From Rhodococcus sp. (in: high G+C Gram-positive bacteria) (GTDB lineage: Bacteria > Actinomycetota > Actinomycetes > Mycobacteriales > Mycobacteriaceae), in NCBI GenBank assembly GCA_023264675.1, contig JAHFVG010000019.1, forward strand, positions 6,097-70,096: a DNA stretch of 64,000 nt, given 5' to 3'. Position 1 is the first letter of the stretch. Each line of letters opens with the position of its first letter. The notes under the pieces are model-generated. The model had not been told where the DNA came from and did no database searches. It was given only the letters and a program-made list of their open reading frames with translations. The translations under genes were made by a program, and so were the position numbers. Below are positions 2,887 through 35,848 of this stretch, piece by piece.

Positions 2887-4002
2887 TCAGAACGAGTCGA
2901 GAACGGAGGTGGAAAGGCCGAAGGCGGTTGTCATGCCGATGCCGGAGGTGACCGACACCACCCTGACGCGTGTTGATGGTGCGGCAGTGAGGAAGTCGGT
3001 GTGCGGACTGGTGGCATATACCCCGCGCCACCGACGCAGGACGGTCAATGGAGTACCGAACAACCGTGCACCTTCGCGCAGGAGGAGTTCGGCATTGGAT
3101 TCGTCGTCGAAGGGAGTATGGGTGCGTGCGTTGTGGTGAGTGTCGCCGAGGACCACCGCACCGTCGGGGCGTTGTGTGAGCATGAGATTCATTGCAACGT
3201 CGATCAATTCGGGAGTGTCGGCTTCGATTCGACTACGCACAGCCTGCGCCGAGGGCATGGCGGCGAGTCCGTCGTAGCGAAGCATCGACAGTCCGGTCAG
3301 GATCGCCGAGTCCAGGACGATTCCTCCGGGTGGTGCGACTTCGAGCATCTGCAGGCGGCATCGCTCGACGCTCCACTCCGCCGCGATATTCGGAAACAGT
3401 CGGTCGACATCGTGACCGACAGCGTGGACGACGTGAGCTCCGCGCACCGCTCCTCGTGACGTGCGGACGACGGGGTCCTCGTCTCCGAGAATCTCGATCA
3501 CCGATGTATCCCAGAAGAATTGGACTCCCTCAGCGGCAAGCCATGCGGCGAGAGCAGGTGCCGCTTCGCGAGGATCGACCCGAAGATCCATCGGTAGGTG
3601 CGCGGCGCCCAGTACGTCGGCGCCGCCGATGGGGCTCGATGCTCGCATCCGAACCTGCTCGGATCCGCGCTCGGCGGCGAATTCCTCGAGCACGGCCACT
3701 TCGTCGGCAGCACGGGCGACGACGAGCGTGCCGCACTCTCGTACGTCGAACCCTGCCTTTCTGCCGAGAGCCAGCCAACGCTCACGGGCGGCCAAAGCAT
3801 AGGTCAGTGCTCGGCCTGACTGCGCCGTCGTGCAGATGTGTCCGAAGTTCCGGATCGAGGCGCCGACGGCGCGATCGTTTCGTTCGATGACGGCGACGGA
3901 CATGCCGCGCTGCACCGCCTCGGCGGCATGCGCGAGTCCGACGATGCCTGCGCCGACGACGACGAGGTCGAACGAGTGCTTGGGGGAGTGGTCGGTCTTC
4001 AC
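2887..4002 (-). CDS. FAD-dependent oxidoreductase, DAO family (TIGR03364/HpnW-like, putative aminophosphonate oxidase)
   Basis: GAGIVGLAHA dinucleotide-binding motif, GASIRNFG, VTSGIGMT. Syntenic with phnCDE and a PhnX-like HAD. Start is uncertain (GTG 4002 or the ORF-track start 4038). Confidence 0.85.
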   Translation of the reverse strand: MKTDHSPKHSFDLVVVGAGIVGLAHAAEAVQRGMSVAVIERNDRAVGASIRNFGHICTTAQSGRALTYALAARERWLALGRKAGFDVRECGTLVVARAADEVAVLEEFAAERGSEQVRMRASSPIGGADVLGAAHLPMDLRVDPREAAPALAAWLAAEGVQFFWDTSVIEILGDEDPVVRTSRGAVRGAHVVHAVGHDVDRLFPNIAAEWSVERCRLQMLEVAPPGGIVLDSAILTGLSMLRYDGLAAMPSAQAVRSRIEADTPELIDVAMNLMLTQRPDGAVVLGDTHHNARTHTPFDDESNAELLLREGARLFGTPLTVLRRWRGVYATSPHTDFLTAAPSTRVRVVSVTSGIGMTTAFGLSTSVLDSF

Positions 4003-34833: not shown

Positions 34834-34889
34834 CAGCAGACCCCCTGTGTGAAGTTACGAGCCGAGTGTCCGAGCGTAGCGCCGACTTC

Positions 34890-35666
34890 CTAGATGGAGT
34901 GTCGGGTTCCGCCCAGATGGCGTGCGAGGAAGCGCGCCGAGCTGTCCTGCTCGTGTTCGGGGACTTGAAAGTGGCTGCCCGGGTGGGCGTGCAAGGTCTT
35001 GTCCTTCGAGGCGAAGGCGTCGAACAACGCAAGACCGGAGGTGCGATCGATGTGGTCGTCGTCCCATGGAATCCGATACTCGAGTGGGACCGTTATCTTT
35101 CGCGCGGACTCGATCAGAGCGTCCGCGACGAATACTCCGCCGAAACTCAGCGCTGCGATCCGAGATTCGACCGAGGCCAACATGAGCCCTGTTGCGACGC
35201 CGAGCGTCACTCCGCCGTATCCGATGGGAGCTTCGGCGCCGATGTCGGGCAGAGCCTGTAGGGCGTCGAGGGTTCTCTGCCATTCCGGCACAGCGCGATC
35301 GGCCAGCGACATGTTGTAGTCGACGACTGCCGAGGCGATGGAACGACCACCCGCTCGGGCACTCTGGATATCGTCGACCCACTGCTGATCCTGACGATTG
35401 CGTGGGCGGTCGCCGTGCCCGGGTGCGTCGATCGCGGCGACGAGAAAGCCATAGGTTTCGACGCAGTGAAGTGCGTTCGCCACCAAACCCGGCGCCTTCT
35501 TGTGCATACCGCCGCTGTGGCCCGACAAGAGCAACGGCGAGCCTGGGGCCGTCGAGCCGGAGGTGGGTGACCAGAGAACGCCGGTGATCTCGCCGAGCGT
35601 GAACTCTCGTTCGACGAGGCCGTGTGCCGATGTGCCCGAGACGAGTGTGTGAGAGATGAAGTCCAT
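34890..35666 (-). CDS. Alpha/beta-fold hydrolase (dienelactone hydrolase-like) with an atypical nucleophile elbow
   Basis: LLLSGHSGG, IDAPGHGDR, elbow GVTLG, WDD, HPGSH. ATG 35666 follows GAAAGG. Confidence 0.82.
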   Translation of the reverse strand: MDFISHTLVSGTSAHGLVEREFTLGEITGVLWSPTSGSTAPGSPLLLSGHSGGMHKKAPGLVANALHCVETYGFLVAAIDAPGHGDRPRNRQDQQWVDDIQSARAGGRSIASAVVDYNMSLADRAVPEWQRTLDALQALPDIGAEAPIGYGGVTLGVATGLMLASVESRIAALSFGGVFVADALIESARKITVPLEYRIPWDDDHIDRTSGLALFDAFASKDKTLHAHPGSHFQVPEHEQDSSARFLARHLGGTRHSI

Positions 35667-35754
35667 GGTGTGGCCTTTCGGGAATGCCTTGTCGAGGAGG
35701 CGCTCCCGGCGACACCTAGATAGTTCGCCCGGCCGTGAATCCGAGGGGAGCACC
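35667..35754 (-). promoter_or_regulatory. Alternative RNA hairpins (translational attenuator) sequestering the hydrolase RBS
   Basis: One fold pairs GGUGUCGCC:GGCCACACC and GGGAGCGCCU:AGGCAUUCCC around GAAAGG. A competing fold pairs GGUGCUCCC:GGGAGCGCC and GGCGA:UCGCC. Confidence 0.65.
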
Positions 35755-35775
35755 CAATGGGGATACAGCGTTCAT
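35716..35775 (-). CDS. Leader peptide (uORF) MNAVSPLGAPLGFTAGRTI
   Basis: Full consensus SD AAGGAGGTGA (35781-35790) 5 nt before the ATG; the stop is 49 nt upstream of the hydrolase start. Confidence 0.7.
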   Translation of the reverse strand: MNAVSPLGAPLGFTAGRTI

Positions 35776-35811
35776 GGGTCTCACCTCCTTGCGTGCGATC
35801 ACGGTCACCGG

Positions 35812-35848
35812 ACGGTATCAACCCGAAAGGCACACGTCCACCGATTTG
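35812..35848 (-). promoter_or_regulatory. Housekeeping-sigma-type promoter TGGACG-N17-TACCGT with an upstream CAAATC element
   Basis: -35 at 35835-35840, -10 at 35812-35817, and an A-rich element at 35843-35848 just upstream of the -35. Confidence 0.45.

Follow-up and report, generated by a model that had tools for sequence, protein, structure and literature searches.

The question raised by this locus is how a hydrolase-like gene is controlled in a 64,000-nt stretch of Rhodococcus sp. DNA, the whole of which is referred to here as the window. On the minus strand, a CMD/PcaC-like gene (36298-35882) is followed by a 215-nt intergenic region, the hydrolase-like gene (35666-34890) and an amidase gene (34833-33403). 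Within the intergenic region the first-pass annotation had described an upstream open reading frame (uORF) with its own Shine-Dalgarno (SD) sequence, a 49-nt spacer, a hairpin and the hydrolase ATG, and had proposed that together they form a translational attenuator; every one of these parts was recovered. We give a probability of about 0.55 to the reading that they belong to a self-contained Actinomycetota promoter-plus-leader cassette that controls translation of the following gene, a uORF-dependent switch gating resistance-type cargo. The leader is probably an undescribed antibiotic-linked translational switch. As a phylum-wide element of ~150 nt, it is a concrete candidate for an RNA mechanism that controls resistance-type enzymes, including Rox, the rifampin monooxygenase, which destroys rifampicin.

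In order to examine the conservation of the leader, we fetched 80 orthologous hydrolase loci, one genome per species, from Rhodococcus, Nocardia, Mycobacterium/Mycolicibacterium, Gordonia, Streptomyces, Kribbella, Nocardioides, Actinomadura, Streptosporangium, Microbispora and Microbacteriaceae. The same promoter-plus-leader cassette is present in 77 of the 80 loci, across several orders, and the uORF and stems proposed by the first-pass annotation are kept in it. The shared parts are a promoter with -35 and extended -10 elements, the 5'-terminal ACCGUGA, an invariant AGGAGGUG SD sequence, a uORF of 13-19 codons, the GGGUGCUCCC and GGCGA boxes, and the hairpin. The order of the conserved blocks is -35-like TTGGAC and extended -10 TGnTAnnnT, ACCGTGAC, GAGGAGGTGAGACCC with an ATG, GGGTGCTCCC, TTCACGGT, GGCGA, TGAcgTAG, GGTGTCGCCGGGAGCGCC, and GGCAATCCCGAAAGGCAACACC with the ATG. 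A covariance model of the leader scores the 77 loci at 57-170 bits, with a single copy per locus, and finds one copy in the window (140.9 bits); neither the window nor 200 loci yielded a second copy. That the nucleotides themselves are conserved was first indicated by an N-terminal extension, VSPGAPEQGIPKGNT, with which three database homologs of the hydrolase had been mis-called: it is the hairpin sequence read as protein, in a phase that differs from that of the window. No conserved gene neighborhood was found around the cassette, and the CMD/PcaC-like and amidase neighbors seen in the window are not conserved; therefore the unit consists of promoter, leader and gene. A scan of Rfam 15 with E values up to 10 returned no family matching the leader, and we did not find it described in Rfam 15 or in the searchable literature, including searches with the box sequence and with the uORF combined with the RAE, a rifamycin-related element discussed below. 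Three orthologous hydrolase genes lack the leader (L063, L064 and L074). One of them, from Flexivirga endophytica (L064, ~2960-3010), is directly preceded by GGAGGTGCGGCCCATG, which closely resembles the SD-ATG region of the uORF, and the arrangement looks as if the body of the leader had been deleted.

All elements of the leader are read on the minus strand. A putative -35-like hexamer, GTGGAC (35836..35841; family consensus TTGGAC), is preceded by an A-rich stretch and keeps its position in upstream alignments of orthologous and non-orthologous loci. It is followed by an extended -10-like TGaTACCGT (35812..35820; family pattern TGnTAnnnT), in which T, G, T, A and T are near-invariant (columns 9-17 of alignment A2), and by a transcription start predicted by homology at ~35806 +/- 3. 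The transcript would then begin a few bases ahead of the 5'-terminal box ACCGUGA (35799..35805). The SD sequence of the uORF, AAGGAGGTGA, lies at 35781..35790; its GG.G.TG positions are invariant and the remainder is at least 90% conserved in alignment A3, which holds 130 leaders. The uORF itself (35716..35775, with ATG at 35775 and TAG at 35718-35716) has 19 codons plus the stop, encodes MNAVSPLGAPLGFTAGRTI, and lies within the mechanically called open reading frame (ORF) 35716..35808. Inside it are the near-invariant, anti-SD-like GGGUGCUCCC box (35746..35755), the sequence UCACGG(C) (35732..35738) and GGCGA (35725..35729). The spacer between the uORF stop and the hydrolase ATG covers 35715-35667. 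The sequestering hairpin (35662..35720) includes both the uORF stop and the hydrolase AUG; its 5' arm, GGUGUCGCC-GGGAGCGCC, lies at 35716-35699, and its 3' arm consists of AGGCAUUCCC (35689-35680), GAAAGG and GGCCACACC (35675-35667). The ribosome-binding site (RBS) of the hydrolase, GAAAGG, is at 35674..35679; CGAAAGG is at least 90% conserved, and the GG pairs with CC of the 5' arm. The two uORF segments that the first-pass annotation had singled out, GGUGCUCCC (35754-35746) and GGCGA (35729-35725), are present and are complementary, respectively, to GGGAGCGCC and to UCGCC of the 5' arm.

The leader is not confined to the hydrolase family. We scanned metagenome contigs by the RNA motif alone (GGGTGCTCCC, 22-45 nt, GTCGCCGGGAGCGCC) and obtained at least 120 loci, 50 of those listed encoding the hydrolase. 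Among the matches listed, 105 loci could be classified by the first gene after the leader: this gene is hydrolase-like, as in the window, in 49 loci, GNAT-like (~260 aa, two-domain) in 25, Rox in 20, patatin-like (~300 aa) in seven and unclear in four. No helicase, arr, rph or rgt was found as cargo among these 105 loci classified from the matches listed. The assignment of Rox is based on the NCBIfam equivalog NF033145 (807.6 bits vs a cutoff of 800) and on PDB entries 5vqb (E 3.3e-202) and 5kow (E 1.9e-195). In the complete genome of Streptomyces canus the leader precedes rox with a score of 163 bits, and in large actinobacterial replicons it stands before hydrolase, rox or patatin-like genes. 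It is not tied to one kind of cargo. In Arthrobacter sp. ERGS1:01 (L209, 1801-2857) the leader and a patatin-like gene lie between motB and fliM of a flagellar cluster, which illustrates how the cassette inserts as a unit. Additionally, many rox genes are fused in frame with the first ~40 codons of the hydrolase gene (MHSLQFTAEPSSN..VERDFTVGDVPG..SPASG) placed before the Rox start MFDVIIAG; examples are L132, L183, L184 and others in metagenomes, and NCBI Rox proteins of 513-516 aa such as P0124, P0138 and P0170. GNAT-like cargos likewise begin with MNSAHFTS. These fusions show how the cassette was transplanted, and it seems either that the beginning of the hydrolase gene travelled along with the cassette or that this coding stretch belongs to the regulatory unit.

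The presence of one leader before unrelated proteins bears on an alternative in which the conserved nucleotides are protein-coding, either because the hydrolase starts at GTG 35753 with an N-terminal extension or because the uORF encodes a functional small protein. GTG 35753 is indeed in frame with the hydrolase, and the three database homologs called with the VSPGAPEQGIPKGNT extension would fit such a start. However, the hydrolase ATG at 35666 is the start of database protein P0001 (258 aa) and of homologs of ~253 aa, which is why we do not take the in-frame GTG as the start; the distance between the uORF stop and the cargo ATG ranges over 27-58 nt in all three phases; and the same nucleotides are read in different frames among genomes. 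We consider the protein-coding alternative extremely improbable and already contradicted by the comparative data. Starts of the hydrolase at GTG 35753 and at the overlapping ORF 34855..35715 were both rejected on the basis of homolog N-termini and of these spacer lengths.

We then analyzed the RNA structure. Folding positions 35720-35661 alone reproduces the hairpin that had been described, with stems GGUGU:ACACC, GCC:GGC, GGGAG:UUCCC and GCCU:AGGC, and with a free energy of -28.1 kcal/mol vs -16.5 +/- 2.8 kcal/mol in 200 dinucleotide shuffles (z -4.07; none of the 200 is as stable). It pairs the GG of GAAAGG, and at its base the uORF stop UAG lies opposite the hydrolase AUG. The whole leader of 146 nt is not more stable than its shuffles (z -0.49); the statistical signal comes from the 3' hairpin and, most of all, from conservation. 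Three helices make up the closed form of the RNA. The first, Pa, joins the 5'-terminal ACCGUGA with UCACGGU inside the uORF (in the window, with UCACGG at 35738-35733) and shows compensatory changes from C-G to U-A and from U-A to C-G; at alignment pair 8-97 of A3, CG is found in 108 sequences and UA in eight. The second, H1, pairs the uORF SD (GGAG) and CCC-AU with the GGGUGCUCCC box (99.7% and 97.9% paired). The third is the sequestering hairpin, which is paired in 88-96% of the cells of the 130-leader alignment and carries compensatory changes in its lower and apical stems. Taken together, the three helices are 92.8% paired over the 130 leaders, compared with 31-46% for slid control sets, and contain 13 compensatory pairs vs 6.9 +/- 1.4 in shuffles; none of 500 shuffles reaches the observed value on four of five measures, and one of 500 does so on the fifth.

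Two further helices compete with the closed form. Helix S4, formed by GGCGA and UCGCC (35712-35708), is 94% paired, has compensatory changes in four of its five pairs, and its observed values are reached by none of 500 shuffles on any of the five measures. Its 5' strand falls in the last codons of the uORF and its loop holds the uORF stop. It competes with the foot of the hairpin (GUGUCGCC:GGCAACAC); the two are mutually exclusive because both use UCGCC. The mutually exclusive arrangement proposed earlier is supported by compensatory changes in both the sequestering stem and GGCGA:UCGCC. The other competing helix, S2, joins the GGGUGCUCCC box to GGGAGCGCC; it is 98.3% paired and has a single compensatory change. 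The patatin-type leaders have a rearranged 3' arm, which reads GGCGACUCCC right before the AUG and still complements GUCGCC and GGGAGCGCC, an architectural form of covariation.

Covariation also bears on an alternative in which the conserved boxes act as DNA or are recognized in trans by a protein or a small RNA, with a repressor or an activator binding next to the promoter and the hairpins being secondary. Such an alternative would agree with the unusual conservation of the promoter and of the first transcribed stretch, and with the assumption that the RAE, the other element linked to rifamycins, binds a factor not yet known. Against this, conservation extends 150 nt into the transcript, as far as the cargo AUG, compensatory changes occur in three helices, and no regulator gene is conserved beside the cassette. 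In the unbiased genome set, moreover, paired positions show 174 G-U vs 59 A-C combinations; G-U is tolerated three times more often than A-C, which favors pairing of RNA on the minus strand. We therefore regard action at the DNA level or by a trans-acting factor as very unlikely.

The uORF is the second part of the argument for a translational switch. An ORF is open at the uORF position in all 78 leaders of the genome set (the window and 77 genome loci), starting 6-8 nt after GGAGGTG and ending shortly before the hairpin. An automated parse recovered the uORF in 125 of the 130 leaders of A3, and four of the five failures had a uORF in the earlier reading of 78 leaders. In the 125 leaders the start codon is ATG (103), GTG (21) or ATT (1), the length is 17 or 19 codons in 111, and 122 have their stop 10-19 nt ahead of CGGGAGCGCC. 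The stop codons are TAG (72), TGA (48) and TAA (5), and the conserved TGAcgTAG provides stops in two frames. The peptide is conserved over only its ~5 N-terminal residues, the commonest form being MNAVTMWVLPLVFTVGRLT. The GGGTGCTCCC/GGGUGCUCCC box falls in frames 1, 0 and 2 in 104, 13 and 8 of the 125 leaders, so that GGGTGCTCCC is read as WVLP, GCSP or LGAP (LGAP in the window), and indels that shift the frame are tolerated where the ORF still ends before the hairpin.

Several observations argue that the uORF is really translated. AGGAGGUG is complementary to the 3' end of actinobacterial 16S ribosomal RNA, and it is invariant well past the four bases that are paired in H1. The G of the uORF AUG is unpaired and yet near-invariant, and the GGAGGTGCGGCCCATG of Flexivirga directly drives the hydrolase gene. 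Further signs are the interchange of ATG and GTG, the stops in two frames (UGAcgUAG), and the survival of the ORF through frame-shifting indels.

The promoter was recognized by comparison between loci. A consensus scan for promoters and terminators in the region of the window found none, including no terminator-like site, and detected no antisense promoter at the leader. The window derives from a groundwater metagenome represented by DNA runs, and RNA-seq was therefore taken from a related R. opacus-like strain, whose raw reads were compared with the R. opacus 1CP locus; this strain is ~5% different from the reference and has a divergent intergenic sequence upstream. Sense coverage begins at 2853-2862 of locus L006, 5-14 nt past the last T of the conserved -10 box. 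There are no reads upstream of this start and no read with an unmatched overhang, and coverage runs through the leader into the ORF as one transcript. The depth over the leader (22-34) is not above that over the ORF (up to 100), and there is no excess of leader reads. This pattern agrees with a dedicated promoter and speaks against control by premature termination. The lack of a terminator, together with the read-through in RNA-seq, fits translational rather than transcriptional control, as the first-pass annotation had supposed.

We also examined which of the competing states could open the cargo RBS. When folds of the 3' half were forced, the median difference between the hairpin and S4 states was +2.1 kcal/mol (standard deviation 5.1), with S4 being more stable in 30% of the leaders; the unpaired fraction of the cargo RBS and AUG was 0.71 in the S4 state and 0.43 in the hairpin state. 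The two states are predicted to be near iso-energetic. Forcing S2 costs ~16 kcal/mol relative to the minimum free energy fold, and we reject the pairing of the box with GGGAGCGCC as a thermodynamic anti-sequestering switch, although it would be possible as a kinetic or ribosome-assisted intermediate. The earlier proposal that two uORF segments free the RBS finds support for GGCGA:UCGCC, which is near iso-energetic with the hairpin in these folds and leaves the RBS more open, and none for GGUGCUCCC:GGGAGCGCC on account of its cost. In a crude model of the ribosome, ~30 nt were forced to be single-stranded at successive uORF positions and RBS accessibility was measured. Accessibility was 0.44 in the free RNA, 0.45 with the ribosome at the uORF start, 0.47 in mid-uORF, and 0.66 at the uORF stop, where it exceeded 0.5 in 91% of the leaders.

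The highest accessibility being reached with the ribosome at the stop, the simplest mechanism that fits the anatomy is one in which a ribosome that has arrived at the stop of the uORF unmasks the cargo start. The resting RNA would have both of its ribosome-binding sites closed, with the SD and AUG of the uORF open to sequestration by the GGGUGCUCCC box within the long-range Pa helix, and entry to the uORF would be controlled by H1 and Pa. With its great strength, the SD of the uORF would capture 30S subunits, and a ribosome that reaches the uORF stop would melt the foot of the hairpin, either exposing the cargo start directly or letting the RNA refold to the open S4 state. If the foot is melted in this way, cargo synthesis would depend on ribosome traffic over the uORF and not on a particular nascent peptide. 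The sign of the regulation could be opposite if ribosomes over GGCGA mainly block the formation of S4.

A number of points weigh against the switch that we propose. Translation of the uORF and the direction of its effect are inferred; changes from ATG to GTG also fit a change from A-U to G-U in helix H1. H1 and the helix between the box and GGGAGCGCC are nearly devoid of covariation, their sequences being too conserved, and H1 is uninformative in this respect because it is almost invariant. The metagenome leaders were selected by exact box sequences, which biases conservation in that set. The effect at the stop codon is partly built into the thermodynamic model, itself a crude one, because the modelled ribosome covers the 5' arm. 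One patatin-type leader (L131, 577-717), which may be a decaying copy, is the only one without a uORF start codon (GCG) and also has a divergent hairpin, and in another leader (L004) the uORF runs into the hairpin. The hydrolase-like cargo lacks a conserved nucleophile and may not inactivate any drug. Finally, it is not obvious how a switch driven by ribosomes senses an inhibitor of RNA polymerase, the target of the drugs to which the cargo points.

The first-pass annotation had compared the leader with inducible attenuators of the erm and cat type. In the erm, cat and cmlA systems (ermC/ermB, cat-86, cmlA), a short ORF with its own SD lies upstream, a hairpin covers the RBS and AUG of the resistance gene, a helix involving the leader ORF competes with it, and control is translational. 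Our leader is alike in its uORF with an SD, its hairpin burying the RBS, its competing uORF helix and the lack of a terminator. Its design nevertheless departs from the textbook one: the uORF stays open but its peptide drifts, the uORF SD is sequestered too, with both ribosome-binding sites being masked, and the uORF stop is found in the loop of the competing helix, at the foot of the hairpin. The cargo is also different, consisting of Rox, GNAT-like, patatin-like and esterase-like proteins rather than ribosomal RNA methylases or chloramphenicol acetyltransferase.

A strict attenuator of this type, in which a ribosome-targeting drug would stall the ribosome early on a specific peptide, GGGUGCUCCC would pair with GGGAGCGCC and the RBS would open, does find some agreement in our data. 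The leader has a four-segment layout of SD, box, GGGAGCGCC and UCCC-RBS; the box and GGGAGCGCC are 98% complementary; M-N-A-V is the best-conserved part of the peptide, with GCN varying at its third base; and an IF-1 paralog is encoded within the cargo operon of Tsukamurella. However, forcing the box onto GGGAGCGCC carries the cost of ~16 kcal/mol given above, the modelled ribosome at the start or in the middle of the uORF leaves the RBS about as closed as in free RNA, the peptide is not conserved past ~5 residues, and cargo and neighbors point to rifamycins and not to drugs that target the ribosome. The likeness to erm and cat is further weakened by the occurrence of the GGGUGCUCCC box in all three frames and by its ability to sequester equally the uORF's own SD and AUG. 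We hold the strict attenuator to be quite unlikely, and from sequence comparison the leader does not appear to be a peptide-specific staller of the erm/cat type.

Leaders of the whiB7 and topAI type act mainly through transcription termination or Rho, and their targets are a transcription factor or a toxin-antitoxin pair. By comparison, the leader described here has no terminator and is joined directly to enzyme genes. Two reports deal with a uORF upstream of E. coli topAI that senses several ribosome-targeting antibiotics and the uORF leader of whiB7 (wblC) in Mycobacterium and Streptomyces (PMC12121999, PMC10274678). The likeness is that the expression of stress or resistance genes is linked to ribosome behavior by a conserved uORF within a long 5' leader.

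The independence of the box from the reading frame could also suggest a ligand-binding riboswitch, in which conserved unpaired nucleotides would form an aptamer for an antibiotic or a stress metabolite, with the uORF being part of the expression platform or incidental. Nucleotide identity is very high over ~150 nt across orders, GGGUGCUCCC occurs in three frames, codon 4 is better conserved at its third base than at the other two, diverse cargo of a detoxification type stands behind one element, as with guanidine-type riboswitches, and the switch is bistable. On the other hand, no Rfam family matches, and the extended invariant SD with a start codon at ideal spacing and the stops in two frames are hard to explain without translation. 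Additionally, we found no junction of several covarying stems enclosing a conserved core; RNAalifold gives simple helices only. A riboswitch is thus unlikely, and we retain the uORF-dependent switch as the preferred reading.

The most likely physiological role of this switch is a response to antibiotics, and probably to rifamycins, in view of the cargo set (Rox, GNAT-like, patatin-like and esterase-like proteins) and of the neighboring rph, helR and rox-like genes controlled by the RAE. In the literature (Spanogiannopoulos 2014 via bioRxiv 10.1101/2021.05.10.443488, PMC10719064, PMC12802891), the RAE is a 19-bp palindrome found upstream of arr, rox, rph, rgt and helR in Actinobacteria, at a density of two per genome; it led to the discovery of Rph and HelR, and its mechanism is described there as still unexplained, an unknown factor being assumed to bind it. 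In order to compare the two elements, we rebuilt the sequence of S. venezuelae Rox from a PDB alignment, located the protein and read its locus. The upstream region of this rox gene carries the RAE palindrome GGGGCTTGCGGCAAGGCCCC (L212, 1423-1442), and the leader is absent from the locus, where the best match of the covariance model (9.3 bits) falls inside coding sequence. No RAE palindrome, GGGGCTTGCGGCAAG(G/A)CCCC, was found in the leader or in the window, and no palindrome in the leader exceeds 75% self-complementarity. We therefore reject identity of the leader with the RAE: the two are different elements that serve two clades of rox (~67% identical), and a position upstream of the rifamycin-resistance gene rox is an association that they have in common. 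Both are phylum-wide cis-elements in the 5' untranslated region or promoter of rifamycin-resistance genes including rox, and both can guide the way to new resistance genes. They differ in sequence, which is unrelated, and in the leader's length of ~150 nt, its uORF and a cargo without helicase, arr, rph or rgt among the 105 loci classified from the matches listed.

The two elements do meet at some loci. An RAE adjoins the leader-hydrolase cassette in five loci, as the classic palindrome GGGGCTTGCGGCAAGACCCC or variants of it. It is followed by Rph (1546 bits) in L032 (4087-4106), by HelR (1232 bits) in L034 (6076-6095), and by a Rox-related monooxygenase in L061 (3793-3812) and L065 (3854-3873), where it lies ~60-120 nt after the hydrolase stop; in L091 (2716-2735) it is at the contig end, ~1.4 kb downstream of the hydrolase. 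Five loci in the 1.08 Mb of loci searched compare with ~0.3-0.4 expected at the published two RAEs per genome, which by our own Poisson estimate has a probability of ~1e-4. This adjacency, together with the shared cargo, ties the hydrolase cassette to the rifamycin resistome, and a link of the leader to rifamycins is suggested. The earlier proposal that the hydrolase is an antibiotic-response protein thus gains support by association, from the leader before Rox and from adjacent RAE-controlled rph and helR, while the class of drug shifts from ribosome-targeting compounds to the rifamycins, which act on RNA polymerase. Much as the RAE pointed to Rph and HelR, the leader marks three uncharacterized families (the esterase-like family with a degenerate triad, the two-domain GNAT-like family and the patatin-like family) as candidate members of an antibiotic resistome, probably one for rifamycins.

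A tentative extension, to which we give rather little weight, is that the leader is a second, RNA-based and RAE-independent sensor of the block of transcription by rifamycins, in which a silent structured mRNA would be kept and switched on by loading of the uORF as free ribosomes accumulate. If it were true, resistance proteins would be made despite impaired new transcription, and resistance or tolerance to rifamycins would be an undescribed function of the esterase-like, GNAT-like and patatin-like cargos. A comparable alarm is known from B. subtilis, where helD and pps respond to rifampicin through dual convergent promoters and promoter interference, with no dedicated transcription factor, and where the alarm is also found upstream of hydrolases, transferases and known resistance genes (PMC12802891). 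The leader would resemble it in sensing a drug with no such factor and in having hydrolase and transferase targets, and differs in that no antisense promoter was detected and that the conserved part is the transcribed leader.

An observation on the promoters touches both elements. In S. venezuelae (L212, 1405-1442) and in L032, L061 and L065, the RAE palindrome is preceded by (T)TATAGCGC or TATATCGC, and the -10 region of the leader (window 35812-35821; columns 8-17 of A2) reads TGATAGCGT. Both elements lie just downstream of a -10 of the ATAGCG type, perhaps by coincidence, perhaps because they share a class of promoter.

The cargo of the window (34890..35666) is a 258-aa alpha/beta-fold protein with a degenerate catalytic triad. 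It matches the esterase Est97 (PDB 4ao6), its closest solved relative, with E 1.3e-23 for the single sequence and 1.6e-27 for a profile; the Pfam family Hydrolase_4 matches it only below its cutoff. The two are alike in fold family and in the HGG and PGHG(D/E)R motifs, and the invariant motifs of the cargo family in alignment A1 are HGG...HKK (GH.GGMHKKAPG) and DAPGHGDRPR (IDAPGHGDRPR). The family differs from Est97 at the catalytic positions: the Ser of GXSXG is Thr in the window (GVTLG) and T, S, N or M across 29 homologs, and the catalytic His is H, Y, R or D. A conserved Ser-His-Asp triad with a GXSXG nucleophile is thus not found in the family, and these substitutions suggest that the cargo may be a non-canonical enzyme, a pseudo-enzyme or a binding protein.

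Some genomes provide further detail on the cassettes. In Tsukamurella tyrosinosolvens (NZ_LR134460.1; L205, 1801-2609) the leader is followed by a truncated GNAT-like ORF of 152 aa; the stop of this ORF and the start of an extra infA, which encodes the IF-1 paralog (translation initiation factor), share 4 nt. Genes for a glyoxalase and a DUF6817 protein come next. A linear 1.7-Mb Streptomyces replicon has three leader matches and another replicon has two (NZ_CP108366.1 H4, NZ_CP109481.1 H10), which indicates that a genome can carry a small regulon of cassettes.

Finally, long shadow ORFs in the window extend across the hydrolase gene and the leader in other frames of the minus strand (34855-35715, 286 aa, and 35207-35833, 208 aa); they are artefacts typical of high G+C DNA. 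Gene callers could accordingly mis-annotate the leader as coding sequence, as happened for P0085, P0095 and P0112.

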